Below are positions 3,842 through 61,097 of a stretch of DNA of 64,000 nucleotides, piece after piece (position 1 is the stretch's first letter; each line of letters starts with the position of its first letter). The position numbers were made by a program, and so were the translations under genes. The stretch lies in the IMG/VR virus record IMGVR_UViG_3300042691_030776, one strand, 5' to 3'. The notes under the pieces are model-generated. The model was not told the origin of the DNA, did no database searches, and saw only the letters and a list, made by a program, of their open reading frames with translations. The stretch comes from a virus.

Positions 3842-4612
3842 CTATTTCCAATGTGTTAACACAGTTGTGTCATTGATTTCATGTGGTTTTGGTTGCCCGT
3901 GGAATATCAAGATACTTGTATCGTTGGGCAATACTGTGCCCGAGCCAGGATTTTTATGTTTACGATGTCTAAAATCGTAGCCACCATCCAGCAGTTCCCA
4001 GCGCCAGCTTTTCACACAATTTTGATCAAAATAACCTACCTGTCCGACAGGCACTTTTTCTTGGATATAATCTTGGTCTCCGTGCCAGGGTGATTTACGA
4101 TGGGCAACTTCGCCGGGTTCAAACTCCCTGTAGACATAGTTAAACTTGGTTGGATCAAACCACATCACTGATGAGTTCAAGGTAGCACGGCTGGGCCGGA
4201 ACAGGTACTTGAAATCTTGCACTGCCCATAACTTATCTGTGGGCAACCGCCATATCCAATCTATGTTGCCCACTATCACTGTGTCTAAATCAAAATACAA
4301 CATGGGCCCAGAATGGTATCGTGAATCAAAAAGCTGTATCTTATACCACCAGCTACGTTTGGGTCCGCGTATGCCGGGCCACTCTTGCAGATGATGATGT
4401 ATCATATGCCCTGGCACCACTCTGTTCTTTTCGGTATACACATGCATACGCACCGTGGGTGTGAGATTGCGACACAGGCTGTTATACAAACGCTCAACAT
4501 AGTTCCACTGATACTGTACATCATGTATAAGGCAAGCACAGTCAATGGTCGTCAACACTGTTGGCTGTTGGGCCTGCGCTTTTCTAGCTCGTTTTTCTTC
4601 TTTGGTTTCCAT
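3842..4612 (-). CDS. glycosyltransferase, GT-A fold (GT8-like)
   Basis: WWYKIQLF, LYFDLDTVI (DxD), NSSVM, HGDQDYI and FHGQPKPH motifs. Confidence 0.8.
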   Translation of the reverse strand: METKEEKRARKAQAQQPTVLTTIDCACLIHDVQYQWNYVERLYNSLCRNLTPTVRMHVYTEKNRVVPGHMIHHHLQEWPGIRGPKRSWWYKIQLFDSRYHSGPMLYFDLDTVIVGNIDWIWRLPTDKLWAVQDFKYLFRPSRATLNSSVMWFDPTKFNYVYREFEPGEVAHRKSPWHGDQDYIQEKVPVGQVGYFDQNCVKSWRWELLDGGYDFRHRKHKNPGSGTVLPNDTSILIFHGQPKPHEINDTTVLTHWK

Positions 4613-5466
4613 TATGTTTTCAATGCTGATTCAAGTCTGCGGTACCACAAACCTTGAGCTATTTCTTCCTGGGTGTATTCTGTGTGGCATATCTCAACGA
4701 TCCACTGATCTCGATCCACGGTGTAGGGCTGTTCAATATCGCTGATCTTTGTACTTACCGGCCAGGCCAGGCTGGATCTATCTACTATGGGTCTAGTTCC
4801 GGCCAAGGCCGCTTGTATGCCTGGGCCTGAGTTATAGTTGACAATGGCATGACAATCAAAGGTCAAGTTGTAGCTGTCATAGGTATTGACTATTTTAACA
4901 GGTTGTTCTATGACAACATCTCGAGGCAAATGTACAAGTCCAGCCCAATCCAAAGGACTTCTAGGATGCGGTCTTACCACGATGGGTCGATCTGTTACTC
5001 TACGTAGTTGTTCTACCTGGTCAACTACCCACCCCTCCACGCTGGCCAAGCCCACTGCTTGTTGACTGCGAGCATGCTGTGCCGCTATCACTATCTTGGG
5101 GTTGCGACTGACATTGATGGCTTGGCTGATACCCAGTCTTTTGGGGCGATTCCAATCTAGATTTTCTGTGTGCCCGTAGTAGCCGTTAGCGGTGATAGAG
5201 TTTACAGCAATCTTCCAAGTTTCACCGCGATATAGAGATCCTATGTCTATGATAATGACTGGCTTGTTTTGGCCGCGATAATGCGACCATACCATCTGAT
5301 TGGCAGCTAGACGTCCAGACCACAACACTGACCATATCACTGCTGTGTCAGCATCCTGAGAGTTTTCTACTGGCTCAAGGCCATGTCTACGACAACCATC
5401 TAGGAACGCAGACAGTATAGAGGAACCATTTAAGGCAACTTGTTTTGGAAAATAGGCTATACGCAT
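4612..5466 (-). CDS. KpsS/KpsC-like capsular polysaccharide biosynthesis-type protein (putative GT-B transferase)
   Basis: IVVRPHPR and NYNSGPGIQAALAG motifs; paralog of 7481-8425 and 8400-9494. Confidence 0.6.
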   Translation of the reverse strand: MRIAYFPKQVALNGSSILSAFLDGCRRHGLEPVENSQDADTAVIWSVLWSGRLAANQMVWSHYRGQNKPVIIIDIGSLYRGETWKIAVNSITANGYYGHTENLDWNRPKRLGISQAINVSRNPKIVIAAQHARSQQAVGLASVEGWVVDQVEQLRRVTDRPIVVRPHPRSPLDWAGLVHLPRDVVIEQPVKIVNTYDSYNLTFDCHAIVNYNSGPGIQAALAGTRPIVDRSSLAWPVSTKISDIEQPYTVDRDQWIVEICHTEYTQEEIAQGLWYRRLESALKT

Positions 5467-5468
5467 AA

Positions 5469-5484
5469 GGTTAAATATTTAACC
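5469..5484. promoter_or_regulatory. palindromic bidirectional late promoter
   Basis: Perfect palindrome GGTTAAATATTTAACC with TAAATA on both strands, between divergent ATGs at 5466 and 5485. Confidence 0.75.
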
Positions 5485-6288
5485 ATGAAACTACCACCCT
5501 TACAAGGAACCCTAGATCAACCAGGATTCTTTATCTATGCTGCCGCTGACGCTACATATTTTGATGAGTATGCTGTGCCGTTGATCAACAGCGTGATCAA
5601 AAATACTCCGCACGGAATCCATATACACATCTACAACCCCAGACCAGACCAGATTGAGCGTTGCCAAAACACTCCCAAAGTGTCAGTGACTTGGGAAACC
5701 TTTGACGAGACTCTGTTCAAATCGGCTCTGAAGTTCTGGACTAGGTCAGACTTGCCCGATCCATATCTTGCTCGCAGAAATCGCATGCTGGGTACCAAAG
5801 TAGTAAACAAGAATTTGCCCCTAGAAGAAAATCTAGCAGTTTGGTTGAAGAAAACCTACTATGCCTGTGTGCGTTTTATCCGACTGGCTGAGTTGGTAAA
5901 ACAACCTAGGTCGTTCTTGGCTATCGATGTGGATGGTATAGTGCGGAGTTCTTTCCAATACGAGTTTGATGACAACAAAGATTTCTACTTGCATGTCAAA
6001 GAAAAAGGCGGGCACCTGGCTGGAGTATTGCTGGGTACTCGTAATCCTCGTTCGGTAGAGTTCATACAACGTCTGGCCAATGACATATCACGCGAGTTTG
6101 AGCAGGACAACATCTACTGGTTCTTAGATCAATATTGCTTAGACAACCTAGTAGACCAGTACAACAAAGGCTATCTGCCACTGAGCTACATTGATTGGCA
6201 CATGAAACCTGAAAGTGCGATATGGTCTGCCAAGGGTAGACGCAAAGAACTAGCAGTGTTCAAGCAAGAACAAGATCGCTACCGATGA
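5485..6288 (+). CDS. putative glycosyltransferase (GT-A, DxD)
   Basis: YYACVRF, LAIDVDGIV and WFLDQ motifs; start reassigned to ATG 5485 (MKLPP). Confidence 0.6.
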   Translation: MKLPPLQGTLDQPGFFIYAAADATYFDEYAVPLINSVIKNTPHGIHIHIYNPRPDQIERCQNTPKVSVTWETFDETLFKSALKFWTRSDLPDPYLARRNRMLGTKVVNKNLPLEENLAVWLKKTYYACVRFIRLAELVKQPRSFLAIDVDGIVRSSFQYEFDDNKDFYLHVKEKGGHLAGVLLGTRNPRSVEFIQRLANDISREFEQDNIYWFLDQYCLDNLVDQYNKGYLPLSYIDWHMKPESAIWSAKGRRKELAVFKQEQDRYR

Positions 6289-6899
6289 AAAAAGTTTTTT
6301 CCTACTGGTTGCCCGATGATGAAGATCATTTTAGTTCTTTTATCAACAGATATGCCAAATGGGGCGAGCCTCCTGAATATCAATATCAGGTGCGTAACAA
6401 GGCCATGACCTTTGTAGACAAGTTCGATGTCAGCGTGGACATAGGAGCCAATCTGGGTCTGTGGAGCCAGAGCTTGGAACAAAAATTTTTACAAAACTAC
6501 GGTATAGAACCCATACAGGAGTTTTCGCAATTTCTCAACCTGAACGCACCACGCACCCGTGTCATATACACAGCATTAGGATCCAGTCCAGGATCGCTGA
6601 ACATGACCAGAGATCAACACAACTACGGCAAAAATCAAATCTGTGATACGGGTAACATCACAGTATCAATACAAAAACTGGACGATCTAGATTTACCCCC
6701 AGCAGATTTTATCAAGATAGATGTTGAAGGGTTTGAATACGAGGTTTTAAAAGGTGGGGAACAATATATAAAAAGCTCCTATCCAGTGTTGGTAGTTGAG
6801 CAAGAACAAAAAAAATCTGTGTCTACACAACTATTGTTGTCCTGGGGATACAGTGTAGTAGATAGTTTCAAACACGATTACATATATAAACGACTATGA
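6285..6899 (+). CDS. FkbM family SAM-dependent methyltransferase
   Basis: VDIGANLG, IEP, FIKIDVEGFEYEVLKG. Confidence 0.9.
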   Translation: MKKVFSYWLPDDEDHFSSFINRYAKWGEPPEYQYQVRNKAMTFVDKFDVSVDIGANLGLWSQSLEQKFLQNYGIEPIQEFSQFLNLNAPRTRVIYTALGSSPGSLNMTRDQHNYGKNQICDTGNITVSIQKLDDLDLPPADFIKIDVEGFEYEVLKGGEQYIKSSYPVLVVEQEQKKSVSTQLLLSWGYSVVDSFKHDYIYKRL

Positions 6900-7522
6900 A
6901 CGCAAAGTTAAACGATGAATACATAAACCTGGTCAAAATGCAAAGGCCATATGTGGAAGGCAACACCAATGAAGAAATGTTTGCCTGCTACATGCAGGAT
7001 GTTGAACAGGACTACAAGGACATACGAGAATTTTTAAATCATACCACCAACCTAGTGGATCTTGGTTCCGGCATGGGAGGTATAGATTTCATGATCAAAC
7101 GTCTGCATCCTAACATACACATTACTTTGTTAGACGGAGAGCAAGTTGAAGCAGGTGAACACTACGGCTACAAAGAAGATCTAAAGTTTTATTCCAACAA
7201 TGCAGTAGCCAAACAATTTTTTGATGACAATGAACTTGCCGTTGATTTCTATTTGGCTCAAGATGATCTTGTGTTGCCTTGCGATACTTTGATCAGTTTG
7301 AACTCTTGGGGGTTCCATTATCCAATCAATCGCTACATAAACTTTGTCAAAAACAATCGTCCCAAGATTATTATTCTAGATATAAGATCTAGCCGACAAA
7401 ATCTTAACGAGTTACAAGCTCTGGGCTATGTATATCATGCGACCTTGCGCACTTGGGGTAGTAAAAAGTCTAGAACAGTGCTATTTGACCCATTGACGCA
7501 TGTGGGCCCAACACCGACCTGA
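6896..7522 (+). CDS. class I SAM-dependent methyltransferase
   Basis: LVDLGSGMGG motif I; ISLNSWGFHYP. Confidence 0.75.
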   Translation: MNAKLNDEYINLVKMQRPYVEGNTNEEMFACYMQDVEQDYKDIREFLNHTTNLVDLGSGMGGIDFMIKRLHPNIHITLLDGEQVEAGEHYGYKEDLKFYSNNAVAKQFFDDNELAVDFYLAQDDLVLPCDTLISLNSWGFHYPINRYINFVKNNRPKIIILDIRSSRQNLNELQALGYVYHATLRTWGSKKSRTVLFDPLTHVGPTPT

Positions 7523-8425
7523 CTGTAGATCTTGAAAACTCCAGTGACACTGAGCCAACTTTTTAATCCAATGTGATCTGTCGGGCATCACGGGATTTTC
7601 TATCTTGCTAAGATCAGTGTTGGATACCTCCCCTGCCTGACAATATCCTGGATCATCTGTGATAAACGCAGGTACACCTTCTATCACTGCCACAGAACTA
7701 GGAGTAGAGTTGTGACATACCACTGCCCAACAGTTTTTTAAATCTTCAGTGATGTGTCGTTCTTGAGGGCTCATCACAGCATTAAACTTAGATAGATCTA
7801 CTCCCACTGGAAAGTTTTTCCAGTCTCCAGGGTGCCAACGTAGTTTGACGGGCCTGTCTGTGTGTTTTCTAATCTGTAGAAATGTGTTATCTAACCACTC
7901 CATGAGATTTTGTCCGCGCATACTCCAGCCCATTGGACGTTGTAAACAAATCAAAACATGTTCTCCTGTCTGCCGCCACGGAGCAAGATCCATGTTGTAA
8001 TCTCTGCGTATGTTGACCCAGTTTTCGTCGCCCGGATGATCGTTACAGTATATTCCTGTGGCCGGAAACACACCATTGAAACTGTAGCGAAGATACTTGT
8101 GAGGATTGGCTCGATTTTTGTAAATGAATACGTTACTGTCAATGCTGAGCCAATACTTGCCAAGCTGACGCTGTGTGTCCATTACCATTTTACGTACCTT
8201 GTAGTGAGGCAACCGTGTTTTGGATGGATTGGAATCAAATGCATTGCCAATGATGGCCGCAACATCACAAGGTTCATAAGTCTGACTCATGGTGGTGGTA
8301 GCGTTGTCTCCACACCTAGCGGCACCTTGTACAAGGTAGGTCAACGCGGCTACTTTTTCATCACCGTTGATGTGCTTGGGCAAACTACCAAGATAGCTTT
8401 TAATAACTAAGGATCTGGCGCTCAT
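7481..8425 (-). CDS. KpsS/KpsC-like capsular polysaccharide biosynthesis-type protein
   Basis: LRWHPGD and VVCHNSTPSSVAVIEGVPAF motifs; paralogous to neighbours. Confidence 0.6.
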   Translation of the reverse strand: MSARSLVIKSYLGSLPKHINGDEKVAALTYLVQGAARCGDNATTTMSQTYEPCDVAAIIGNAFDSNPSKTRLPHYKVRKMVMDTQRQLGKYWLSIDSNVFIYKNRANPHKYLRYSFNGVFPATGIYCNDHPGDENWVNIRRDYNMDLAPWRQTGEHVLICLQRPMGWSMRGQNLMEWLDNTFLQIRKHTDRPVKLRWHPGDWKNFPVGVDLSKFNAVMSPQERHITEDLKNCWAVVCHNSTPSSVAVIEGVPAFITDDPGYCQAGEVSNTDLSKIENPVMPDRSHWIKKLAQCHWSFQDLQSGRCWAHMRQWVK

Positions 8426-9494
8426 TGTTTTCCAATACTAACTGCCAGGCTTCTCCCGACAACATTTCATTGAGACTGAACTGCCCATATGCTATCGAGC
8501 ACAACCATTTGTAAACAATATCCTCGCTGTGCATTACTGGATTTTCTATCTGTGTGAGATCATTACTGCAGACTGGCGCGGCAGCTGTGGGAGCCAGCGC
8601 AAAAGCTGGTATGCCGTACTGTACAGCTTCTACTGCGGCTATGCTGTTGTAAGTCACTAGAGCATAGATATCATCGCCCAACGCATCATAGATAGTATCG
8701 TTGGTTCGTTCTCCACGGCCAGCTTTTTCTCTAATGACTATCTCTCTGTCTGTGTGTTTTTTTATAGTGGCGATGGTATTTTTAATCCATTGATCACGAT
8801 CTTCACCATAATATTCAAATGGCTTTTGTGTGCTCATTACTAGTAGTATCTTACTGCCAGAGTTTCGCCAACCGTAATAGCGTAGATTGGGATTAAACTT
8901 AACCAACTGTTTCCAACGATCATCGGGTACATCCATGATGTTAGGATGTTGCATGGCATTTTTTACTATTCGATGATAGACTTTTCTACCAGTGCGATTG
9001 TTTTCGCAACGGTAGTTGCCTAGATATCCAGTTTCAATAAAGTAGTAATCTTTGTTATTTTTTATTGCATGATCTGCTATCTTACCATTGGCTATACCTC
9101 GTATGAGTATTGGTCCATTGATGTTTTCATACTCATCCCAATAGCGAGACTTGTCTAAGAATTTACTCTCTGGGTATGCTGCCATGATCATAGCAGGATA
9201 GTCACTGAACTTGATACAACGATCCAGTTTTTCATTGAGAGAGATAATGTACTGTTTGAACTGACGATCTATAGATTGATCTTTGCGTTTTTTAAAGTAA
9301 ATCCTTGCCATTTCAGCCTCATCGGTATTGGCCACTTCAAAAAAAGTCTGTTCAATGTTACGAAGCGTGTTGACTTCATTGTTTAACATTCTTGCATCAG
9401 CAACATTGTGCTTGAGTGCCGATTCGATGGTTGTATGTTGGGTGCGATATTCTTCGCTGGGCCAACGATCAACCAAGGCCACTGGTAATGTCAT
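8400..9494 (-). CDS. KpsS/KpsC-like capsular polysaccharide biosynthesis-type protein
   Basis: YFIETGY, IVIREK, LVTYNSIAAVEAVQYGIPAF; start placed at ATG 9494 (ATGA overlap with the upstream stop). Confidence 0.6.
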   Translation of the reverse strand: MTLPVALVDRWPSEEYRTQHTTIESALKHNVADARMLNNEVNTLRNIEQTFFEVANTDEAEMARIYFKKRKDQSIDRQFKQYIISLNEKLDRCIKFSDYPAMIMAAYPESKFLDKSRYWDEYENINGPILIRGIANGKIADHAIKNNKDYYFIETGYLGNYRCENNRTGRKVYHRIVKNAMQHPNIMDVPDDRWKQLVKFNPNLRYYGWRNSGSKILLVMSTQKPFEYYGEDRDQWIKNTIATIKKHTDREIVIREKAGRGERTNDTIYDALGDDIYALVTYNSIAAVEAVQYGIPAFALAPTAAAPVCSNDLTQIENPVMHSEDIVYKWLCSIAYGQFSLNEMLSGEAWQLVLENNERQILSY

Positions 9495-10180
9495 TGATCG
9501 ATCCTTTGCTGACAGTATTCTGTATAAATCCTTTCTCTGTGCCACTCATCGCCTTGTGGTGTGTCTGCAAACTCGTGGAAGCAAGGAGTTCCCAGCGTGT
9601 AGTGCAACAGTTTGGCATTGGGATTCGCTCCATATTCATCGGGCAACCAGTTCCACTCAGGAGGAAGTTCACCTATACGGTCATCGTCTAACCACGAGAA
9701 GCGGTGGAGGAAACTGCCGGTTGACTGCTGGACAAACTCAGGGGTAAGGCGCCGGTTAGGAAAGCTACTACAGTTCCACAGAATAACACTACTCCAATTT
9801 TTTCTAGGATAGTCTTCATTTTTCGCTCCAAGATATTTAATGGGCATTCGAGTTTTGTAATCGTGTTTGACTACCATGGCATCTTTGTTCATTTCTCTAA
9901 GAGCCCATAGCTTGGTAATGTCATCACGTACAATCATATCACCATCAATAAAAATTGCCCACCCTTGATAGTGCATGAGGTATGGTACAAGAAATCTTGT
10001 ATAGATAAAATGATTACTGCCATCAGTGTGTGTTTCGTCGTAATCTTTGAACAGATTCAACGCCACTGGGTGTATGGCCACAGGGCCGGTGGCATGTCTG
10101 ATGATAGAGTTTACACAGGTATGAAAAGCTATGGCTTCTCTTGGGTCGTACCCTACAAATACTGGAATGATTTCTTTCAT
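9491..10180 (-). CDS. glycosyltransferase (GT-A, GT8-like)
   Basis: VFVGYDPRE, FIYTRFLVP, FIDGDM (DxD), YPRKNWSSV, LHYTLGTP. Confidence 0.85.
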   Translation of the reverse strand: MKEIIPVFVGYDPREAIAFHTCVNSIIRHATGPVAIHPVALNLFKDYDETHTDGSNHFIYTRFLVPYLMHYQGWAIFIDGDMIVRDDITKLWALREMNKDAMVVKHDYKTRMPIKYLGAKNEDYPRKNWSSVILWNCSSFPNRRLTPEFVQQSTGSFLHRFSWLDDDRIGELPPEWNWLPDEYGANPNAKLLHYTLGTPCFHEFADTPQGDEWHRERIYTEYCQQRIDQ

Positions 10181-10941
10181 TGTCGTTCTATGTCAACTTC
10201 TTCACAACGATCGCCGTACTGTATCTCTATGATTTTCAATGGCTCTGTGCCTTCGTTGGCCAGTTGGTGCCACTCTCGACGATTGATTACTAGCATCTGA
10301 TGCTGTGTGTATCGACCATGTAACTCTGCATCTGACGATCTATTTATAGTGTACAGCGTGGCTTCACCTTCGCTGACAAACCAAACTTCGCCACGATCCT
10401 CATGACGTTGCATGCTCAGTGATTTTCCAGGCTCAACTGTGAGTTCTTTGAGCTTGACTCGTTGATTAGGTTCATGCAACACACGATAGTAGCCCCAATC
10501 ACGTGTGGTTTTGGGTGCTCTCCATTCTTCTAGTATCCAAGAGCTTGAGTTGTTTTTATCAAACCCACCGACTCCAAACATAAACCGGAGATTGTCATCT
10601 TTGACATCCATTTCTGGAATGTTAGAGTCAGTGCGGTCGCCGCCGTTGGCAAAAATGATTTCATCTCTGGGATACATGGCTCGGACATTTCGTATGGCTT
10701 CTCTACTGGAACCATCACTGTCGTCGTAGAGCACACAGTGATCCACCATGCGTAGGCTCTGGATGATGTCAACACGCTCTCTCAACGGCAAGAACGGACG
10801 TCCTTTTTTACGTGTGAGCCAAGCATCAGAGTTCACCCCAACAACCAGGATATCGCCTAGTTGTTTGGCAGCCTGGAAATAAGCAAGGTGACCTGAATGC
10901 AAAGGATCAAAGCCACCAGTTACAAGTACGATTTTTTTCAT
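10177..10941 (-). CDS. cytidylyltransferase-family nucleotidyltransferase fused to a mannose-6-phosphate isomerase-type cupin
   Basis: N-terminal TGGFDPLHSGH (HxGH), GVNSD, FANGGDR; C-terminal WGYYRVL, SLSMQRH, WHQLAN, IIEIQYG; start placed at 10941 (MKKIVL). Confidence 0.88.
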   Translation of the reverse strand: MKKIVLVTGGFDPLHSGHLAYFQAAKQLGDILVVGVNSDAWLTRKKGRPFLPLRERVDIIQSLRMVDHCVLYDDSDGSSREAIRNVRAMYPRDEIIFANGGDRTDSNIPEMDVKDDNLRFMFGVGGFDKNNSSSWILEEWRAPKTTRDWGYYRVLHEPNQRVKLKELTVEPGKSLSMQRHEDRGEVWFVSEGEATLYTINRSSDAELHGRYTQHQMLVINRREWHQLANEGTEPLKIIEIQYGDRCEEVDIERQ

Positions 10942-10968
10942 ATAGTATTTATATACCACTATATTGGA

Positions 10969-11709
10969 CTATAAAATCATCTTTGTTTGCATAAGGAAGT
11001 CAAATAATTTTTTGTGACCTTTTTGATTTGCATGTTTGCCGTCGGGAAAAAAATATTCAGGATTTGCATCCCATATTTGTTGTCGAGTGAGCGTGTTGTC
11101 AATCAATGATTCTATAAATGAAATCATAGTCGGATCATCTGTGCGATTTTTAAGGAAATCTGCGGCTTTAGAGCTTATAGAAAAATTTTCTTTGTTGACC
11201 CTGTGATCATCGTTGACACATAAGTTTGTAAAACTCTGACACACTACTTCAACTCCAGGGTACTCTTGTTTGAACTGATCTAACCAGATAGTATCTTCTA
11301 CTCCACCAATCAACTTTATTGATACTGAATATTTTTTTGAAATTTCGCTCAGCCCATAATAAAATCTACTGAGATATCGCAAATGTATATCTTCGTTCAA
11401 AGGATCTAAGAAGTTTGTATCAAAATCTATACAGTAAGTCGCTGGAGAAAAATCTCGATACCATTCAGTCTGGAAGACAAAAATAGTTTGTACTGTTTCT
11501 ACTAGATGTAAATGTGTTCCAGATATAAAAAATCTATGGATAGATCTCAATATATCTTGATTGCTGAAACCTCCTTGACTCAGATTGATTACTCGTTGTC
11601 CTGAATCTCTGATGTACCATGCAAGACCGCCGTGCAAGATTTCATCTGGACCAGAGTATCTTTGTGGCCATTCGCCGCATCCCCAACTATCCCCGGATAT
11701 TATTACCAT
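10969..11709 (-). CDS. SGNH/GDSL hydrolase-like protein
   Basis: GDSW block I, GGFSN, C-terminal DGKHAN (DxxH). Confidence 0.65.
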   Translation of the reverse strand: MVIISGDSWGCGEWPQRYSGPDEILHGGLAWYIRDSGQRVINLSQGGFSNQDILRSIHRFFISGTHLHLVETVQTIFVFQTEWYRDFSPATYCIDFDTNFLDPLNEDIHLRYLSRFYYGLSEISKKYSVSIKLIGGVEDTIWLDQFKQEYPGVEVVCQSFTNLCVNDDHRVNKENFSISSKAADFLKNRTDDPTMISFIESLIDNTLTRQQIWDANPEYFFPDGKHANQKGHKKLFDFLMQTKMIL

Positions 11710-11721
11710 GCTTTTTTGTGA

Positions 11722-12480
11722 TTATTGATGCCCCATCCAGCTCAAACTCTTATCAATCCAAGACAGAACTAGGTCATGCTGACGTAGATAACCATACTTG
11801 TTGATGGATTCTTCGGCGGATGCGGGCAGTAGACCTTTTTCTGCCAGACTGTACCAGGTGCTAGTTTTAGGATCGCTGGGTGTTTGATTGCTGTTATAAA
11901 CTATGGCATGTAACCAAGGATCAGTAGGATTCTTTAAGAAAAATCCCGAACGACAATCCCATCCTGAGACAGCTAACATATGTATCAAACTGACCATGGT
12001 ATGATTGTAGTAACAACCCGATGGTTGATCAAAGGACTGTCGTGAAAACTCTATGTTAGTAGTTTGCGGTACTACCAGTACCAACATACCATCTTTGGCA
12101 CATAGTCTGCGCCAGTTTGCCAGGCACTGTAAAGGATTGATCATGTACTGAAACACATCATGGCACCATAGGATATCTTGGCTGTGTTTGATCTGCTGTA
12201 GTGTTTCCAAATCATTTCTAACATAAGTTATGTTGGCGTCTTTGGCTTCTCTACTGATGTTATCCAATAAGTCTATGCCGGTACATCTAATGTTTAGAGG
12301 AGTAGGTTCGTCGTCTCTAGTGGTTCTAGTGGCCCACCATTGTAGATCCAGAGCTTCGTATCCACAGCCAAGATCCATCACACGACCAACACTTTCCATG
12401 AAGTCGTCGTGTTCGTAGAGATCATTAAGAATTCTCAAACTGTGTGCATGACTTTCTTGTGCGTTTTTAAAATTTGCCAT
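11722..12480 (-). CDS. class I SAM-dependent methyltransferase
   Basis: VMDLGCG, GIDL, DILWCHDVFQY, GMLVLVVP. Confidence 0.8.
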   Translation of the reverse strand: MANFKNAQESHAHSLRILNDLYEHDDFMESVGRVMDLGCGYEALDLQWWATRTTRDDEPTPLNIRCTGIDLLDNISREAKDANITYVRNDLETLQQIKHSQDILWCHDVFQYMINPLQCLANWRRLCAKDGMLVLVVPQTTNIEFSRQSFDQPSGCYYNHTMVSLIHMLAVSGWDCRSGFFLKNPTDPWLHAIVYNSNQTPSDPKTSTWYSLAEKGLLPASAEESINKYGYLRQHDLVLSWIDKSLSWMGHQ

Positions 12481-13537
12481 GTATTAGTCCATTAACGGCT
12501 TGCTTGTGTTTATCTAGAGCAGTGTCATATATATGTTTTATCAACTGAGCATTATGTAACAATCTATTCCAGTGTTGTTTTCGAAATAATGCAAGGTTAT
12601 CTTGTTTACAAATATTAGACACTAACTGCACTACTTGTGTCATGCGAGTCCAAGGATCTTGTGTTTGATCGTAGGCATGCCCATCAAATATGTCATCAAA
12701 TACATCAAACCCTATTTTCCTGACTTCATTGACCAGTCCAGGAACAGCGTACCACACAGGAAACTGATGCCAGGCCAAGGCCTTGAATGTTTTTTCTGTG
12801 ATGAATATACTAGTCCATGTGTTAGGGTCAAGCTGGCTGGAACTTTCTACCACAAGGTTTAACGGTGCTTGATAGAACTTTTCGTGATCGATGCGATGCT
12901 GAAAAACCTCATCGGCCATGGGTCGATCTACGATCATTGGAAACGGTTGCGGATATACTAACTTTTTAACTTCGTCGCTGGCATCAACTCCGTTGGTACC
13001 AAATGTCATGATCATATCATTGACATTGATTTTGGCCAGCAGTCGTTTGGCAAGGTTGCCTCGACCAACGCTGGCTCTACGCATCAAGCATACTAGCTTG
13101 TGGGTCATGGGAATAGATTCCCAGTCTATATGGTAGTGCTCAAGATGCATGTACCAGTTACCATTATAGATCAATCTGTCTGGCAGACTAACAGCCGGGT
13201 AAGGTAAAACAGTGACATCTTCAACTGCGCTGAACACTACTCTTATGTTAGAGGATGGTACTTTTAACTTAAAAACAAGATATTTGTAAAAGTTATAAAA
13301 ATCGTCTGACGAAATACCTTCGGGTTTGAGATCAAACACTAATATATGATTTTTTATATCCTGTCGAGTTATGCCCTTGCGTCGGCAGTCTTGTTCAAAA
13401 ATTACTTGTACCGCAACTTCTCCACCTCTCAGTAAATCAGCTGATATTTCTTTCCAAAGAGCATAATGTATTATATTGCCTTCCTTGGTCACTCTTTCTG
13501 GAGGAGGGTTGATTCCTGGTAATATAGTTTCGCTCAT
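12467..13537 (-). CDS. hypothetical protein, TEKT-motif family (putative glycosyltransferase-like)
   Basis: LVVES...FITEKTFKAL...GFDVFDD...YD; paralog of 23547-24572 and 60028-61089. Confidence 0.55.
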   Translation of the reverse strand: MSETILPGINPPPERVTKEGNIIHYALWKEISADLLRGGEVAVQVIFEQDCRRKGITRQDIKNHILVFDLKPEGISSDDFYNFYKYLVFKLKVPSSNIRVVFSAVEDVTVLPYPAVSLPDRLIYNGNWYMHLEHYHIDWESIPMTHKLVCLMRRASVGRGNLAKRLLAKINVNDMIMTFGTNGVDASDEVKKLVYPQPFPMIVDRPMADEVFQHRIDHEKFYQAPLNLVVESSSQLDPNTWTSIFITEKTFKALAWHQFPVWYAVPGLVNEVRKIGFDVFDDIFDGHAYDQTQDPWTRMTQVVQLVSNICKQDNLALFRKQHWNRLLHNAQLIKHIYDTALDKHKQAVNGLIHGKF

Positions 13538-13986
13538 ACTTGTATGTCTTCCATGCCAGCTGTGCGCAGTCTAACAATATGGCCCATCTGCCACTGTTTG
13601 GTGTCAAGACCTTTCATGATACCTAACCAACGATTGCGTAACAATGCTACTTCATTAATTATGGTTTCAAAATCAATCACTTCGTCTTCTCCATCCACAT
13701 ATTTCTCTGCGTCACGGCTGGTCAGCGCACGAGCATAGCCTTCGAGATATTTTTGGAAGTGACGTCGACGTATCTTTCTCAACTGTATGTTGAGATAGTT
13801 GAGCACTGCTTCAATCTCTTGCAGTTGATTGAAACGATGTTCGGTTATGCCCGGCAATGCTGAAATATTTTTTTCAACCAGGCCGCCAATACGACACTCT
13901 TTTTTAGCTTCGTTGAGCTCGTGTTCATAGTGCTGGATAAAGTCAGGTATGTTGCCAAGATTGGCTGTTACTTTACTATACCACAT
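13534..13986 (-). CDS. uvsY: UvsY-like recombination mediator
   Basis: Helical ~150-aa protein (KYLEGY, AEKYVDGEDE, KQWQMGHIVRLRTAG) downstream of uvsX/gp32. Confidence 0.7.
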   Translation of the reverse strand: MWYSKVTANLGNIPDFIQHYEHELNEAKKECRIGGLVEKNISALPGITEHRFNQLQEIEAVLNYLNIQLRKIRRRHFQKYLEGYARALTSRDAEKYVDGEDEVIDFETIINEVALLRNRWLGIMKGLDTKQWQMGHIVRLRTAGMEDIQV

Positions 13987-15223
13987 GTTCAAACTCCTTG
14001 ATCAACCACGGAAATGTTTTTTTCCAATCGAGTCCGCGGCGTAGATCTATTTCATTGAGAAAGTGCAACAGATTATCAATCTGTTCACTGTTGCGTTGGT
14101 GCGTGTTAAACTCTGTTTTCAATCCAGCCATTAACGACCTGGCATGTTTTTGTTGCCAAGTCTGATCGGGCATTTCACTGAGTACAAGATCCAGCTCCTG
14201 ATCAAAGAATCCAGCACCAAAGATACCTGGATAGAGATGCGGTCTATTATTGCAACTCATAAAGTAGTGACCAATCTCTCGATGTTGCCTTTGTTGATTG
14301 ACAAATCTTACAAGATCAATCATAGATTTCATGCCTAGTGCAGTGATTGTCTGATTGATGTTAAGTGTAATCCAACGCTGTGCTACAAGATACTCAAAGT
14401 TACTTTGCCACTCTTTCATGTCAATACCGTAACGTATGTACTCTTGCTCACTGCCCCAACAGTCAATACTACATGTAAGATCAACTCGTTTGATACGTCG
14501 TTGCTTTAACAGAGACTTGATACGTTCTAAAAACTGTTCAAGTTTGGCTCGAGAAACTTTTAAGTTAGAAACAACATTAAACTCTAACTCAGGATTGCTG
14601 TGTTGTTCAAGAAACAACAAACACGTTTCAAACTGACTTTGAAAGAAAGGTTCGCCGCCTAGCACATGTAGTCTGCGCAGAGTTGAATAGTTATCTTCCA
14701 TCCATTGCCAAAACTTCAACGACAGCACGTCAAACTCAGAGGTTTTGATTGAAGTATTTTTAATCTCCAGTGTGTTGTATTTGAAATCGCTGTGGCGTAG
14801 ATTTTCTTGCTGTATCCGACTGCTGAACTTGTCTTCACAGTAGATACAACTCATGTTGCACACATTGTCTAAATATACCTCAACAATACGAGGAGTGACT
14901 TCGACCGCAGTAGGGTTGATGTCTAACTCTGGTGGAACTAGATTAGGAATCTCAATCTGAAACTGTCTGTCACTTTTACCGCCAGCACGTTCAATGTTGG
15001 CACAGTATTCACAGCCGCCTTGTGGCCATTGGCCGTTGAGCATGAGTTGACGATCATTGAGTTTTTTTTCTGTGTTGTGGAAACGTTCAAAATGTTCAGG
15101 GTCAATCTTTGTCTCGTTTACACGATGACAACTGTTGGTTTCGCCCGTGTAGAGATGTATGGTACTCCAAGTCCATTTAAGCTGACATGCTGTTTCTGTT
15201 TTGATAGGAAAGTATTTGTTCAT
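13976..15223 (-). CDS. radical SAM protein with additional N-terminal Cys cluster
   Basis: CNMSCIYC (CxxxCxxC), LGGEPF, SIDCWG, YIRYG; N-terminal C...CH...GCEYC. Confidence 0.88.
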   Translation of the reverse strand: MNKYFPIKTETACQLKWTWSTIHLYTGETNSCHRVNETKIDPEHFERFHNTEKKLNDRQLMLNGQWPQGGCEYCANIERAGGKSDRQFQIEIPNLVPPELDINPTAVEVTPRIVEVYLDNVCNMSCIYCEDKFSSRIQQENLRHSDFKYNTLEIKNTSIKTSEFDVLSLKFWQWMEDNYSTLRRLHVLGGEPFFQSQFETCLLFLEQHSNPELEFNVVSNLKVSRAKLEQFLERIKSLLKQRRIKRVDLTCSIDCWGSEQEYIRYGIDMKEWQSNFEYLVAQRWITLNINQTITALGMKSMIDLVRFVNQQRQHREIGHYFMSCNNRPHLYPGIFGAGFFDQELDLVLSEMPDQTWQQKHARSLMAGLKTEFNTHQRNSEQIDNLLHFLNEIDLRRGLDWKKTFPWLIKEFEHVV

Positions 15224-16362
15224 TGTTCAAGCCAGCTGGATAACGAAGATGGAAACACAGATAAACTCAACGATCTTCGTTGTGCAAATTCTTTGATATA
15301 TGCTTTAAGATTATACACTTGTTTGTCGGTGGGTTCAACCTCTAATGCACCAGACACAAACTCAGGCAGTAGTGCTAGATCTTTTTTAATCATGCTTTTG
15401 GTTTCTTGATCTAGCACACTGATTGATAGGTAATCTGGATCGGTACAGGGTTGAAAGTTAATAGGTACACTGTCGGCCCAGCGAATAAACTCTAATAAAC
15501 CGGGCAAGGTTAGATTGGTAACAGTGGCGTTGAACTCATAACTTATGCCCTGTTGTTTTAACTGATCAATATTATTGTTGAAACGTTGCCAAGTATTACC
15601 GTATCTTGTAAACTCGTAGGCAGCACCTGTGTTCTCGGCACTGATTACTACTGTGACATTGTCTGATAGTCTTTCAACTTCGCGACCAAACCGTCGTTCG
15701 TCAACTCCGAGACCTGACCAAATCTTTACTTTGACATGTGCCGGTATGGACTCAACCAATCGGTGCAAATCAAGATAGAGAAATGGTTCTCCGCCTGTGA
15801 TCATTACTTCTTTGAGTGTGGGTGATTGGCATAACTCGACCAGTTCTTTGAGCATGAGCTGACGTGTAGCAGATGATGCAATCTCTTTTTGACTTATGAA
15901 CTGTAATACACGATCTTTATCATTGATGACAAATCTATCGTCGGTTCTTTCTACTGGATAGGTAGCTTGAGCAACATCTCTGCTCCAGGCAGTGCTGTAA
16001 AACTTGCAACAGTACACACAGGTCATATTGCAATCAGTGCCCACTATGACATTCACTGTTTCTGGTGATGCCACTGTGTTTGTGTGTGTTTGGGTTTGCC
16101 CGTTGGTTGTCAAACGTCTACTAAACATTCCTTGTGACTCAGGAATCCAACAAGATGCACTGCAAGTTGAAACTGGAACGTTGTCCAGCATCATTTGTCG
16201 TTCTTTCTGTAACTCAGGAGTGTTGAAAATCTGCCCTGGATGTTGTCGAAGCCAGGACAGATCTATACGTTGTGGTGTTGCCGCACAACAACTAAAAGTA
16301 TTAAACTTTTCTAAATCAACTGACAGCCACCAAAACTTTTGATTGCAATAATAGTTTGACAT
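15220..16362 (-). CDS. radical SAM protein with additional N-terminal Cys cluster
   Basis: CNMTCVYC, ITGGEPF, FTRYG; N-terminal YCNQKF...SCC...CSASCW. Confidence 0.88.
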   Translation of the reverse strand: MSNYYCNQKFWWLSVDLEKFNTFSCCAATPQRIDLSWLRQHPGQIFNTPELQKERQMMLDNVPVSTCSASCWIPESQGMFSRRLTTNGQTQTHTNTVASPETVNVIVGTDCNMTCVYCCKFYSTAWSRDVAQATYPVERTDDRFVINDKDRVLQFISQKEIASSATRQLMLKELVELCQSPTLKEVMITGGEPFLYLDLHRLVESIPAHVKVKIWSGLGVDERRFGREVERLSDNVTVVISAENTGAAYEFTRYGNTWQRFNNNIDQLKQQGISYEFNATVTNLTLPGLLEFIRWADSVPINFQPCTDPDYLSISVLDQETKSMIKKDLALLPEFVSGALEVEPTDKQVYNLKAYIKEFAQRRSLSLSVFPSSLSSWLEQ

Positions 16363-16601
16363 CAATAGTCATCGTCGTAGTCATCTTCTTCCTCCTCCTC
16401 AAGTTCTTCTTCTTCCTTGAGGTAGTCAGCTAGAGCACGTTTGATGTCTCCGTCACCTTTGAAAATAGTTTTAATATCTTCGGCATCTACATCGTTGTCG
16501 ATGAGAATACCGACCACTGTTTCTGCGGCTTCACTGCGATCAACTGAGTTGATATATCGTTTTACTTCGGTCCAAATTTCGCTTGCTAGTTCAACTGACA
16601 T
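16362..16601 (-). CDS. small acidic hypothetical protein
   Basis: 79 aa with a poly-E/D tail, directly after uvsX; SD GAGGA. Confidence 0.75.
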   Translation of the reverse strand: MSVELASEIWTEVKRYINSVDRSEAAETVVGILIDNDVDAEDIKTIFKGDGDIKRALADYLKEEEELEEEEEDDYDDDY

Positions 16602-23049: not shown

Positions 23050-23595
23050 ATGAGTGATACACTAATATTAGCACCGGACTACCAACCGGTCAACTACTTG
23101 CCACTGTCAACCATAGACTGGCAAACTGCTATAAAACTGTTCTTCCTGGACAAAATCCAAGTGCTAGAATGGTATGATGATTGGATCGTGCGTAGCGCCA
23201 AGCTAGAGATGCGAGTTCCTGCCGTGGCTGTGACAAAGAAAGGTTTTGGCAAGAATGGTGGCATGCGATTCAGCAGACAGAATCTTTATCTGCGTGACTT
23301 GTTTACTTGTCAGTACTGCGGTGACACATTCAATGGCAAACAGTTGACCATTGATCATGTGCTACCACGTGCTCAAGGTGGTACCACTACCTGGGAAAAC
23401 TGTGTGGCTGCTTGTAAAGAATGCAACTCAGAAAAAGGCAACAAGATTTGGCGCCCAAACAAAGTTCCTGTGAAACCAAACTACTGGGCCTTGGTCAACT
23501 CTGTGAAGAGTACCTACACAGGTATTCGCCACCCTAGTTGGAATCTTTATCTTGGACTCAAAGATAGCGAGTCTAAGAGTTTAAGAAATCGTTGA
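23050..23595 (+). CDS. HNH endonuclease
   Basis: RDLFTCQYCG, LTIDHVLPRAQGG, WENCVAACKECNSEKG; start 23050, after TATAAATA. Confidence 0.9.
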   Translation: MSDTLILAPDYQPVNYLPLSTIDWQTAIKLFFLDKIQVLEWYDDWIVRSAKLEMRVPAVAVTKKGFGKNGGMRFSRQNLYLRDLFTCQYCGDTFNGKQLTIDHVLPRAQGGTTTWENCVAACKECNSEKGNKIWRPNKVPVKPNYWALVNSVKSTYTGIRHPSWNLYLGLKDSESKSLRNR

Positions 23596-24572
23596 TCCTT
23601 GTGTATCTGGAACCAGGCTCTGAGTTCTACCAGCCTGTTCCAGTTATGTTCTGTGACGTGTGCCACTGAGTTGGCAAACTCAGCAGAACCATTGGCTACT
23701 ATATCTTTGACTGTTGCAACTACTTTTAATGCACGATCCGTTTCGTTTTGTATAGTGTCATAACTTTCATCAATGTAGTTACCAAACGTCTTAAATCCTA
23801 GGGTGCGTAGTTCTTTCAACGAACCTGGCACGCTCATCAGCACCATTGGCATCTTTGCCGCAATAGGACGCCAAGTTTTTTCAGTAAACCAGGATCCTTC
23901 TGTGGTCAGCGTTTCTGAGCTCACTTCAAAGGCACACTGATTGTAAAGATCCAAACTAGGTACCATGCTCTTTTGCCATAGCATAGGAGCCGAATCTTCT
24001 CCTACGTAGTGTGCAGGAGTTGTTGGTTGATTCCATCCCCAGTTCCCATCCCTATGATAAACCATGATTGAGTTATTACCAACGTCAGACAATCCTTCCC
24101 AGATAACATCACGTGCATGAGCATGACGTCCCATAGTAAGCAAGAAGTCTTTAGTGATATTTTTTGACAGTTTGAGTGATATACGCTGTTCTACCAATTC
24201 AATGAATCTTGATTCTGGGTCCAATGCCACTGAAATATTTTTAAACCCATGATCAAACCAAGCTGATTCTATCACACAGGTTATATTTTTTGCTTCGGGT
24301 TCTTGATCTAGTTCTTTCATCCAAGACATCTCATATTTGAGTATCACAGGAGAGTCTACATTGCCTACTAGTAAAACGTGATTGTTTTTTAACAGAGAGT
24401 AGAGTTTTTGTTTTTGATTTTTCCAAAGTTCTGATAACCATACACAGTCAGTGATCACAATGTTGTCAACAACATCAATATCTCCTGAATCACGATAAGG
24501 AATCGCAAAGTGATTACAAAAAAACTTCCAGTGTTGGGTTTCTATGATAGGAATGATCGTAATAGGCTTCAT
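23547..24572 (-). CDS. hypothetical protein, TEKT-motif family (putative glycosyltransferase-like)
   Basis: EVSSET...FTEKTWRPI...LRTLGFKTFGNYIDESYD. Confidence 0.55.
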   Translation of the reverse strand: MKPITIIPIIETQHWKFFCNHFAIPYRDSGDIDVVDNIVITDCVWLSELWKNQKQKLYSLLKNNHVLLVGNVDSPVILKYEMSWMKELDQEPEAKNITCVIESAWFDHGFKNISVALDPESRFIELVEQRISLKLSKNITKDFLLTMGRHAHARDVIWEGLSDVGNNSIMVYHRDGNWGWNQPTTPAHYVGEDSAPMLWQKSMVPSLDLYNQCAFEVSSETLTTEGSWFTEKTWRPIAAKMPMVLMSVPGSLKELRTLGFKTFGNYIDESYDTIQNETDRALKVVATVKDIVANGSAEFANSVAHVTEHNWNRLVELRAWFQIHKDQRFLKLLDSLSLSPR

Positions 24573-37693: not shown

Positions 37694-38300
37694 TCTGCTG
37701 ATATAGCTGATCCATGGTTCCATTGTTGTCAATCACACAATCAAACTCTGTACCTACCCAGGCAGTTTCGCTGGCATGTACATTGTGTTTTTCCAAACGA
37801 TCTTTGCTCAACGACCAGGACATGTTGGTAGGACCTGCATTTGTAGCCACGGCATCGGCATACCATTCGGGTTCGGGCCCACGAACAACACGCAGTACAA
37901 TACCCCCTTGATTTCTTATGGCTTTGATCTCGTTGGGAAATCTACAGTCACTGATAACCACATCATCTTGGCTGGTTCTCAGCTTGTTTTCCAAGCTGGC
38001 GATCCAAATATCGTCGTGGAATCCGCGGCGGCAAACTTCGGTACCCCATTGCTGTAGTATCCAGCGCGGGGTAATGGCCAGGCCCAGACGTTTTGACCAC
38101 CACTCATCCACTTGTTCACGCCACTCACGAGCTTGTTTTGTGCGCCCTTCTAGCATGGTACGGTCCCACCCAAACACTGCCGAACAGGCATCTTTTAATG
38201 TGTTGGCAAAACTTTCCCTGCGAAACTGATGTATGTTTACTAGATAATCAGCAATGGTATCTTTGCCTGAACCAATGAAGCCACATACTCCGATGATCAT
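37641..38300 (-). CDS. deoxynucleoside monophosphate kinase (T4 gp1-like)
   Basis: IIGVCGFIGSGKDT, SFANTLKD, TPRWILQQWGTE, VISDCRFPNE, HASE. Confidence 0.92.
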   Translation of the reverse strand: MIIGVCGFIGSGKDTIADYLVNIHQFRRESFANTLKDACSAVFGWDRTMLEGRTKQAREWREQVDEWWSKRLGLAITPRWILQQWGTEVCRRGFHDDIWIASLENKLRTSQDDVVISDCRFPNEIKAIRNQGGIVLRVVRGPEPEWYADAVATNAGPTNMSWSLSKDRLEKHNVHASETAWVGTEFDCVIDNNGTMDQLYQQINDLLQGLRDAKVNHFE

Positions 38301-38992
38301 TGTTGATCCTTTAAAAAATTTAAAATATTATCTATTAGAGCCGGGTAAAAAGATGGGTCGGGGTGCGTAGTGTCAGGATATTTTTGCTTGTTTGAACGCA
38401 TATAAATTTCTAACTTGTCTGTTTTTTGTAATTCATCCAATGCTTGTTGTGACTTGTATTCCTTGTTATGATCCAACATCCTGACCACATGATGGGTGTA
38501 ACAATTCAATGGCATGTCCTCAAAGCCACTGATCTGTTTGTTCCAACTGTCAATTTTATACCGGAAAAAACTAAAGTTTTCGATAGATGGCGAAAGTGGT
38601 GCCGCAGATCCTATTACCAAAAACGGTGTCTGATATTGTTCGTACAACTCCTGTGCATACCGATAGTTTTGAGTGTTTAGAAAATGCAAGTCTTCGACCA
38701 AATTTTTCTTTCCAATATCAGAAAAATACGGAGACGGTAGGTTGTCAAAACTGTATATCATGCTGATAAATTCAGAATAGTCTCTTGCTGGTTCTGTATG
38801 AAACCAAATAATGTAATCAACCTTGTCTTTTTCTAAAAGTCCGTATTGCAAATTTTGTAGCTGTCCATGATTACTAGCACCACCCTTGGCTAAGTTGATT
38901 ACACTGTGGCCATCTTGGCCCAATAAATTTTTAATTAGTTCTATGTAAGGCTCCATGCCGGCCCAACTGTCACCTATCACACACAATTTCAT
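38297..38992 (-). CDS. SGNH/GDSL hydrolase-like protein
   Basis: IGDSW, NLAKGGASN, DTTHP; paralog of 10969-11709. Confidence 0.65.
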   Translation of the reverse strand: MKLCVIGDSWAGMEPYIELIKNLLGQDGHSVINLAKGGASNHGQLQNLQYGLLEKDKVDYIIWFHTEPARDYSEFISMIYSFDNLPSPYFSDIGKKNLVEDLHFLNTQNYRYAQELYEQYQTPFLVIGSAAPLSPSIENFSFFRYKIDSWNKQISGFEDMPLNCYTHHVVRMLDHNKEYKSQQALDELQKTDKLEIYMRSNKQKYPDTTHPDPSFYPALIDNILNFLKDQQ

Positions 38993-46605: not shown

Positions 46606-46630
46606 TGTTTATTCCTGTATCATATTTAGT

Positions 46631-61089: not shown

Positions 61090-61097
61090 GGCAATAC

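Follow-up and report, generated by a model that had tools for sequence, protein, structure and literature searches.

Giant viruses use cytoplasmic viral transferases, sugar-nucleotide enzymes, and methyltransferases to build methylated glycans on their virions, as in the capsid glycans of the chloroviruses and the fibril clusters of Mimivirus and Megavirus, and these clusters are variable and clade-specific. Virion glycosylation is also already known from the mycobacteriophages, where cytoplasmic decoration of the capsid and tail proteins by phage glycosyltransferases, with methyltransferases, has been proposed or demonstrated (Freeman et al. 2023, as cited in PMC12619734). Glycan clusters near the fiber genes of phages have likewise been described (PMC7029224, PMC7824862). 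In this report, we describe an island of 12 contiguous genes (positions 3842-13537) in a 64,000-nucleotide stretch of viral DNA from IMG/VR record IMGVR_UViG_3300042691_030776, hereafter the window. The island appears to encode the synthesis of a glycan, and the best reading, to which we assign a probability of roughly 0.45, is that this glycan is placed on the phage particle.

The sequence-only reading, an earlier description made from the letters of the window without database searches, proposed that the region is a phage-encoded glycan-synthesis island, and this is supported by the enzyme families encoded here, by the conservation of a core, and by a slot in which the tailoring genes vary. 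If the virion is the target, then the island would specify a cytoplasmic glycan-assembly line composed solely of soluble enzymes. The nucleotidyltransferase-cupin would activate, and possibly isomerize, a sugar phosphate. Sugars would be added by the GT8 enzyme, by one or two further GT-A enzymes, and by two catalytically plausible GT-B enzymes from the superfamily of transferases that use ulosonic acids linked to cytidine monophosphate (CMP), while a third GT-B paralog that lacks the HP motif might bind the acceptor or act as a scaffold. The methyltransferases, and perhaps an acyl-handling enzyme of the SGNH type, would tailor the chain. T4-type late promoters would drive the core along with the tail and fiber genes, and the product would be an oligosaccharide, methylated and probably acidic, carried on an acceptor that the phage makes. 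Virion surface proteins such as the tail fibers, whose genes are flanked by two sialyltransferase/Maf-like genes, would be the likeliest acceptors. The sequences show the gene content, the paralogy, the folds and motifs, the synteny, and the conservation of the promoter motif, all presented below; from these we infer that expression is late, what the donor sugars are, and, most tentatively, what accepts them. The points in favor of the virion are the conserved and putatively late core, the soluble proteins, the lack of identified export or lipid-carrier genes, the Maf-like pair beside the fibers, and a related module that follows a tail protein gene in Caulobacter phage CcrColossus.

All 12 open reading frames (ORFs) proposed for the island are present, and they fill the interval with nearly zero intergenic space (Table 1). 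Three start codons were corrected, to ATG 10941, ATG 5485, and ATG 9494. The last of these replaces the GTG start of a 381-aa ORF (8400-9545), because in-frame stops interrupt the upstream extension in most orthologs (L016, L040, L049, L051, L052, L057, L060, and L064). The gene is therefore 8400-9494, and its ATG forms an ATGA overlap with the stop codon of the GT8 gene.

The nucleotidyltransferase-cupin fusion (10177-10941) is the opening gene of the core operon and was correctly recognized from the letters alone, with Pfam models of both halves scoring above their cut-offs. It contains a PLHSGH motif, TIGR00125 is above its cut-off, and the PDB matches are cytidylyltransferases. The best equivalog-type match is domain II of HldE (TIGR02199, 4e-22), for which the score of 78 bits is far under the cut-off of 181. 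The GT8 assignment of 9491-10180 is based on PF01501 (34.1 bits against a cut-off of 24.3) and a DxD motif, and the best PDB match is the GT8 module of WbbM (1.2e-3). The gene at 3842-4612, the final member of a leftward sub-operon that begins at 5466, encodes a protein that is 26% identical to PmgQ of phage P1 and HdmD of phage P7 (tblastn). The third of the GT-A glycosyltransferases that had been proposed, 5485-6288, is a lead only: its ESM-feature similarity to viral nucleotide-diphospho-sugar transferase clusters is 0.97, but there is no Pfam or PDB support, the family profile gave chance matches only against PDB sequences, and hhalign against the two other island GT-A genes was not significant. 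Two of the three proposed methyltransferases are firm, namely, the Methyltransf_11 protein (11722-12480) and the FkbM-family protein (6285-6899), which scores 45.8 bits with PF05050 (cut-off 22.7) and 60.8 bits with TIGR01444 (cut-off 37.7); the matches of 6896-7522 are below the cut-offs. The SGNH protein (10969-11709) has the expected GDS, GxSN, and DxxH motifs, and its GDSW and GGFSN sequences are common to a paralog at 38297, but PF00657 (Lipase_GDSL) is reached at only E = 0.036, below the cut-off, and no PDB sequence was matched.

The three remaining transferases of the core (4612-5466, 7481-8425, and 8400-9494) are mutually paralogous (blastp 1e-4 to 1e-15). A model of the best-conserved member, the 314-aa protein of 7481-8425, was obtained with AlphaFold2 (AF2) at a predicted local distance difference test score (pLDDT) of 79, and the top Foldseek matches were WbbB and KpsC, at about 1e-6. 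When this model was re-aligned with VIA, the top 15 structures were all retaining transferases of beta-linked 3-deoxy-D-manno-octulosonate (Kdo), namely KpsC, WbbB, and KrkA, with Z scores of 10.8-12.2 over 235-257 residues at root-mean-square deviations of 4.1-5.1; generic GT-B folds reached Z scores of at most 10.3, so the margin is only 1-2 Z units. The beta-Kdo transferases are defined by the motifs QXXXD, which contains the nucleophilic Asp, and (K/R)XHP, and these are tied to the binding of the carboxylate and CMP (PMC12887879). The motifs were placed in 44 family members by motif spacing and sequence alignment. The Gln is kept in 38 of them, and within R-x-H-P the Arg, His, and Pro are kept in 41, 39, and 38, respectively. 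Two of the window paralogs contain (K/R)XHP, as RWHP in 7481-8425 and RPHP in 4612-5466, and, as in QXXXD, a conserved Gln precedes the HP motif by approximately 34-36 residues. The nucleophilic Asp is kept by none of the three. Its position is occupied by Gly in the 314-aa protein (invariant in the orthogroup), by Ser in the 284-aa protein, and possibly by Glu in the 364-aa protein; across the family, it is Gly in 23 and Asp in 15 of the 44 members. The 364-aa orthogroup has lost the HP motif throughout (REKA), yet it is conserved at 44-74% identity.

Sequence models do not recognize this family. The Pfam model Capsule_synth (PF05159) matched none of the window paralogs and 1 of the 44 relatives (E = 0.0028), 5 of the 44 match DUF6716, and searches of PDB sequences with two profiles of the trio (A1 and A2) returned chance matches but no Kdo transferase. 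Because of this failure and the missing nucleophile, the three proteins are, as far as the modeled fold allows, relatives of the CMP-ulosonic-acid transferase superfamily and not members of GT99, GT107, or GT140, and they likely use a catalytic mechanism that differs from that of the Kdo transferases. Their earlier description as KpsS/KpsC-like paralogs thus stands for the paralogy, for the nearest fold (KpsC/WbbB/KrkA), and for the (K/R)XHP motif in two of them, and it fails at the nucleophile that characterizes the class. The wider viral family comprises 2342 clusters at 50% identity, and every member looked up was named "hypothetical protein". The 314-aa protein has 926 close homologs, on metagenomic contigs of up to approximately 340 kb. 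An apparent insertion or intron in its gene (matches spanning approximately 1390 rather than 942 nt) was an artifact, since tblastn had joined the adjacent paralog.

The organization of the island was compared across 69 related IMG/VR loci retrieved from metagenomes. Seven genes make up a core whose synteny holds in all of the long related loci; the shared order there is uvsX, uvsY, (methyltransferase), nucleotidyltransferase-cupin, GT8, GT-B, GT-B, variable slot, divergent 5485-type gene, GT-B, and PmgQ-like transferase. The median identity is 73-81% for the 314-aa and GT8 genes, compared with 85-89% for uvsY and uvsX. The core genes are about as conserved as the recombination genes, unlike the sporadic accessory genes (SGNH-like, TEK, and radical SAM, where SAM is S-adenosylmethionine; Table 1). 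The variable slot ranges from 0 to 5.5 kb. It contains two methyltransferases in the window, three methyltransferases and a GT25 enzyme in locus L012, and Polysacc_synt_2, an RmlD-like reductase, Epimerase_2, two methyltransferases, and a GT32-like enzyme in locus L034. The first three enzymes of the L034 slot are presumably the trio found in pathways of the UDP-N-acetyl-L-fucosamine (UDP-L-FucNAc) type.

The sequence-only reading had also drawn attention to TAAATA boxes within the island. These are present, both in the palindromic GGTTAAATATTTAACC element and upstream of ATG 10941, and they are conserved in the related loci (Table 1). The two boxes of GGTTAAATATTTAACC stand 9 and 7 nt before the two divergent ATG codons, those of the genes at 5466 and 5485. 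In the window, 18 of 61 genes have TAAATA in the 40 nt before their start, where shuffles lead one to expect 2.5 and the maximum in 2000 shuffles was 9; the genes headed in this manner include the sheath gene, genes of the tube region, and five genes of the fiber array. Three sub-operons of the island, which account for nine of the 12 genes (3842-10941), begin with such a box. Among the relatives, the box was found at 0 of 60 uvsY, 1 of 46 uvsX, and 0 of 24 ATPase gene starts. The AAA-ATPase gene next to the island (2118-3140; phrog_1250) is instead preceded by three tandem near-consensus sigma70 promoters (3173-3362, minus strand), and one TTGACA-17-TATAAT promoter is found in all of the related upstream sequences inspected. 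This is likely a strong early promoter beside the probably late island. The late promoter of T4 is TATAAATA, and by analogy nine of the 12 island genes are probably expressed late. There is no minus-strand TAAATA box between 10969 and 18719, so the TEK, methyltransferase, and SGNH-like genes would ride on the uvsX-uvsY unit. The late timing that had been claimed for the whole island would therefore apply to the genes of 3842-10941 and not to 10969-13537, which overlaps uvsY.

At several genes (10941, 5485, 5466, 21432, 31245, 37346, and 41597), the TAAATA box ends just 4-9 nt before the ATG. This spacing leaves no room for a Shine-Dalgarno sequence, and, should the box be a late promoter of the T4 type, the transcripts would have little or no leader. 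Other genes headed by TAAATA have leaders of 17-33 nt with AGGAG-like sites. A 132-aa ORF directly downstream of the island (3412-3810, minus strand) has a perfect TATAAATA box of its own (3841-3834) and a hydrophobic stretch; it has no family match, and a homolog was found in only one related locus.

The promoters bear directly on the most serious rival, which is remodeling of the host envelope. Here the enzymes would act at the inner face of the host membrane on lipid A-core, an undecaprenyl-linked O-antigen, or a capsule primer, and the host would export the altered glycan, with the result that superinfection is blocked or progeny are kept from adsorbing to debris. Modification of the surface is slow and usually an early function, whereas the core operons lie behind conserved late-type boxes and the sigma70-type promoter is at the neighboring early gene. 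If the envelope is the target, then the late promoters would need explaining. No initiating transferase that acts on a lipid carrier, flippase, transporter (including the ABC type), polymerase, or ligase was identified among the 12 genes by family-profile searches, no transmembrane segment was found in any island protein, and the core is strongly conserved rather than sporadic.

The positions of related genes elsewhere in the window also speak for the virion. As previously proposed, such genes are interleaved with virion genes: those at 23547 and 60028 are paralogs of 12467, with 60028 lying downstream of the capsid gene, 38297 is a paralog of 10969, and 44717 and 58453 form a GT42/Maf-like pair that brackets the fiber array, the genes of which occupy 45388-58456. 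The only PDB matches of the family profile for this pair are nine entries of CstI, CstII, and Lst (9e-4 to 7e-3), and the next match is at 0.42. The protein of 58453 matches the MptE-like gp126 of CcrColossus at 2e-4, and the Pfam CST-I model matches the single sequence at E = 0.2. The pair brackets the fiber array in a 100%-complete relative as well, the fibers of which are only 38-58% identical to those of the window. The location of paralogous and Maf-like genes beside the fibers argues against the envelope as the target.

Several observations weigh against a glycan on the virion, and some of them favor the envelope. The set of enzymes (GT8, Kdo-transferase-like, and HldE-domain-II-like, with GT25 and L-FucNAc-type enzymes in the relatives) matches the content of loci for the core and O-antigen of lipopolysaccharide (LPS). 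The variable slot of the relatives holds GT25 and a WbjB/C/D-like L-FucNAc set, and its hypervariability recalls the diversification of O-antigens. The transferases of the LPS core are likewise soluble or peripheral proteins without transmembrane segments, and the missing segments thus do not exclude a lipid acceptor. The core adjoins uvsX, uvsY, and gene 32-like genes, outside of the virion module. No late box heads the last three genes (10969-13537), which are coupled to uvsY, and the timing of the others is assigned by analogy with the TATAAATA sequence of T4. In G001, the complete relative used for positional comparison of the virion-region genes, the TEK and SGNH paralogs that lie among virion genes in the window do not keep their positions. 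Neither a CMP-sugar synthetase (PF02348, KdsB/NeuA-type) nor NeuB was found in searches of five related IMG/VR records, so that the host would have to supply any ulosonic-acid donor. The lineage has no cultured member. Lipid-linked acceptors are used by KpsC and WbbB, which are the closest structural relatives (PMC12887879), and comparable clusters in jumbo phages and pelagimyophages have been read as modifiers of the host O-chain, capsule, or surface (PMC7824862, PMC7029224). On balance, we regard the envelope as a somewhat unlikely target. It had been concluded earlier that timing and position favor the virion over both DNA and LPS; this is upheld for DNA, while remodeling of the envelope stays in contention.

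Modification of DNA was considered with regard to the neighbors of the island and its last gene. The transferases would glycosylate a modified base and the methyltransferases would tailor the sugar, and the DNA would then evade restriction. The island abuts uvsX, uvsY, the gene for a gene 32-like single-stranded DNA-binding protein (SSB), and two radical SAM genes, and DNA glycans of several sugars are known in phages (PMC13326640). The TEK protein (12467-13537), which had been called a TEKT-family protein, is modeled with a GT-B fold, and the model fits the glucosyltransferases of T4, beta (Z = 10.4) and alpha (Z = 9.7), no worse than any other GT-B, in a tie with dozens of unrelated GT-B enzymes. 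The matches are generic and give no family assignment, being tied among trehalose transferases, the T4 enzymes, FUT9, OGT-like enzymes, and others. For the GT10 fucosyltransferases, the values are Z = 9.7 with FUT9 and E = 1e-2 with FucT (2nzw), again tied with many GT-B enzymes, and the ESM-feature similarity is only 0.78-0.79. No Pfam match (including PF00852) was found at E values up to 1, and the family profile (A3) gave chance matches only against PDB sequences. The ESM Atlas neighbors are exclusively viral, and one cluster is a fusion to an NDP-sugar epimerase/dehydratase. There are 5-7 copies of the family in three of the five related records, three in the fourth, and none in the fifth; the copies in G001, G002, G004, and G005 (the IMG/VR records behind loci L020, L060, L012, and L055, respectively) are divergent (approximately 30% identity) and scattered over the genomes. 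By these sequence comparisons, the TEK proteins can be described as an expanded, fast-evolving, virus-only family of putative transferases.

The pathways for known glycosylated bases begin with a ThyA-type hydroxylase/hydroxymethylase or a Tet/JBP oxygenase. Neither was found in a 100%-complete relative or in a 93%-complete one, although the absence of Tet/JBP is weak evidence since the model gave nothing in the control genomes either. FkbM, the nucleotidyltransferase-cupin, the candidate SGNH protein, and the L-FucNAc-type cassettes are typical of glycan loci and not of DNA loci. We consider the modification of DNA to be highly improbable.

The acceptor might also be a host protein, a small molecule, or a free or cell-bound polysaccharide made late in infection, for example, for aggregation or the control of lysis. 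All of the enzymes are soluble, which would suit such a role, and the neighboring radical SAM genes might hint at a substrate that is a peptide or a small molecule. These two genes are located between uvsX and uvsY in the leftward unit that adjoins the island, and a functional association with it is possible. Some protein acceptor is suggested by a distant family member of 1082 aa (L090:5952-9200), in which a Kdo-transferase-like domain is joined to TPR repeats and to a region with a faint likeness to GT-D. From this domain arrangement, it is possibly a protein-glycosylating relative. The fusion lies in a bacterial-looking context with GT2 genes. Nothing specific points to an acceptor of this kind, and the transferases beside the fibers and after the CcrColossus tail protein favor a virion protein; we regard it as improbable. 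A small ORF absent from the original list (16366-16600, minus strand; approximately 78 codons) was noted between uvsX and the first radical SAM gene, and its C-terminus is very acidic, with runs of Glu and Asp.

The major capsid protein (61666-62916, minus strand) has counterparts at 63-67% identity in Vibrio phage 2.275.O and Pseudomonas phage PA5oct, for which the value is 66%, and in Sinorhizobium phage Phosso and the GAP32/CBB group. The window also codes for UvsX, UvsY, the gene 32-like SSB, the large terminase, the tail sheath, and the fiber array. Based on the capsid identity and this set of genes, the source is assigned by sequence to the jumbo myoviruses of the T4 superfamily. No similar DNA was found in cultured phages, and PA5oct, GAP32, and Vibrio phage 2.275.O have the capsid gene in common with the window but no homolog of the GT8-like or 314-aa genes. 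The "Moraphages" (PMC12619734) were considered as the lineage and are probably a different group, with genomes of at most 307 kb that lack much replication machinery and with predicted hosts in the Bacteroidota.

Table 1. Coordinates and supporting evidence for the island genes, candidate promoters, and related genes in the window (x/69, number of related loci with the gene)
Feature	Position	Strand	Evidence
GT-A-like glycosyltransferase, PmgQ/HdmD-like, DxD motif FDLDT	3842..4612	-	phrog_1962 1.5e-21; 33/69
Kdo/sialyl-transferase-like GT-B paralog 1, 284 aa, motifs QHARS and RPHP	4612..5466	-	blastp to 7481-8425 6e-9; 64/69
Palindromic GGTTAAATATTTAACC element, TAAATA box on each strand, candidate bidirectional late promoter	5469..5484	.	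box in 43/44 related loci
Putative GT-A (lead only), conserved 267-aa protein, invariant DxD	5485..6288	+	start moved from TTG 5440 to ATG 5485
FkbM-family methyltransferase, variable-slot gene	6285..6899	+	PF05050 9.6e-12; TIGR01444 1.9e-16; phrog_8156 1.5e-24
Probable class I SAM methyltransferase, motif I DLGSGMGG, variable-slot gene	6896..7522	+	sub-threshold MTS and Methyltransf_16 matches; 4/69
Kdo/sialyl-transferase-like GT-B paralog 2, 314 aa, Q162RPMG166 and R196WHP199	7481..8425	-	69/69, median 73% identity
GT-B paralog 3, 364 aa, REKA replaces HP motif	8400..9494	-	69/69
GT8-family retaining GT-A glycosyltransferase, DxD motif IDGDM	9491..10180	-	PF01501 2.7e-8; phrog_28018 1.4e-35; 67/69, median 81% identity
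HIGH-superfamily nucleotidyltransferase (HxGH) fused to PMI-type cupin	10177..10941	-	PF01467 2e-13, PF01050 3e-19, PF07883 6e-9, all above cut-offs
TATAAATA box, 4 nt before ATG 10941, candidate late promoter of the T4 type	10946..10953	-	TAAATA box at same place in 43/46 related loci
SGNH-like hydrolase/acyltransferase candidate, accessory	10969..11709	-	GDS (GDSW), GGFSN, DGKH motifs; 0/69
Class I SAM methyltransferase (Methyltransf_11)	11722..12480	-	PF08241 8e-9; 23/69
TEK-motif GT-B fold glycosyltransferase	12467..13537	-	AF2 pLDDT 88; 3/69; start overlaps uvsY stop
Two paralogous N-terminal-twitch radical SAM genes	13976..15223, 15220..16365	-	NF033640 1.8e-64 and 1.4e-46; 19/69 and 14/69
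TEK GT-B paralog between terminase and head genes	23547..24572	-	blastp 1e-7
SGNH-like paralog in tail module	38297..38992	-	paralog of 10969 (blastp); not conserved in G001
GT42/Maf-like protein, distal end of fiber array	44717..45391	-	paralog of 58453; same position in complete relative G001
GT42/Maf-like (CMP-nonulosonate transferase-like) protein, proximal end of fiber array	58453..59040	-	conserved in 5/5 relatives
TEK GT-B paralog downstream of major capsid gene	60028..61152	-	paralog of 12467 (blastp); position not conserved in G001

If the glycan is indeed attached to the virion, then particle assembly in abundant environmental jumbo phages would include protein glycosylation as a conserved step that is programmed to occur late, and such glycosylation would not be confined to a few mycobacteriophages and giant viruses. 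Adsorption, stability, grazing, and immune recognition would all be affected. Apparently undescribed so far are the size of the unannotated enzyme family, the architecture of conserved late promoters, the defined variable slot, and the pair of intact and degenerate Kdo-transferase-like paralogs shared with the phiCbK-like phages. A very large family of viral enzymes related to the Kdo- and sialyl-transferases, from which the nucleophile is gone, is exposed as an accessible biochemical target. Because CcrColossus, its relatives, and Mosig are in culture and carry the core pair, the question can be tested at the bench.

The comparison with known systems begins with the beta-Kdo transferases KpsC/KpsS (GT107), the N-terminal module of WbbB (GT99), and KrkA (GT140), which have a modified GT-B fold in common with the 314-aa model. 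The (K/R)XHP motif is present in two of the three window paralogs and in approximately 90% of the wider family. The trio differs in that the nucleophilic Asp is missing, one paralog lacks the HP motif, and the proteins are viral and soluble with no lipid-linked pathway around them. The proteins of 58453 and 44717 have the N-terminal GNGxS and central SG...A...G..IYL.G.D motifs of Campylobacter CstI/CstII (GT42) and the Maf flagellin glycosyltransferases, and their counterpart in CcrColossus matches the MptE-like/DUF115 family. However, the E values are only about 1e-3, the window proteins are much shorter than Maf, and no CMP-nonulosonate pathway was found in the relatives.

The glycan machinery of the giant viruses consists of similar classes of enzymes, but these are viruses of eukaryotes, and the likeness drawn here is one of gene type. 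The mycobacteriophages differ in enzyme families, host type, and lineage; according to the same cited work, their glycans were seen by mass spectrometry, whereas the island is known from its genes alone. Nearer in lineage are the LPS-related clusters and "host recognition cluster" of the pelagimyophages and cyanomyophages and the "capsular polysaccharide modification systems" of jumbo phages, which are likewise found in aquatic T4-like phages (PMC7029224, PMC7824862). These clusters and the island alike have GT8 enzymes, rfaE-like nucleotidyltransferases of the HIGH superfamily, several paralogous transferases, radical SAM cassettes, hypervariable content, and proximity to fibers. The Kdo-transferase-like trio is not described in either of these papers, and the clusters there are read as sporadic modifiers of the host surface, whereas the island has a conserved syntenic core, late-type promoters, and a defined variable slot.

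Homologs of three island genes, including the Kdo-transferase-like and GT8-like genes, stand side by side in Pelagibacter phage Mosig. In CcrColossus, gp127 has the motifs QRGIG and RAHP, gp128 has the degenerate RQKP, and the GT8-like gp129 follows. It may be that the widespread lineage of ~340-kb aquatic phages and unrelated phages such as the phiCbK-like Caulobacter phages and the pelagimyophages share an ancient mobile module, in which a Gly-for-Asp transferase from a new branch of the Kdo-/sialyl-transferase superfamily and a dead, acceptor-recognizing paralog cap the tail fibers with acidic sugars (Kdo or nonulosonic acid) from host CMP donors on a methylated glycan. We consider a proposal this specific to be unlikely. 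Because Gly replaces the Asp of covalent catalysis, the transferase would probably work by a different, perhaps inverting, mechanism. The phages would then "sialylate" their own adsorption organelles, with an arms race driving the hypervariable tailoring slot. In the gene order of CcrColossus, the GT8-like gene, the pair of HP-intact and HP-degenerate GT-B genes, and the Maf-like gene follow directly on the gene for a 1665-aa tail protein, and the lysis genes come after them.

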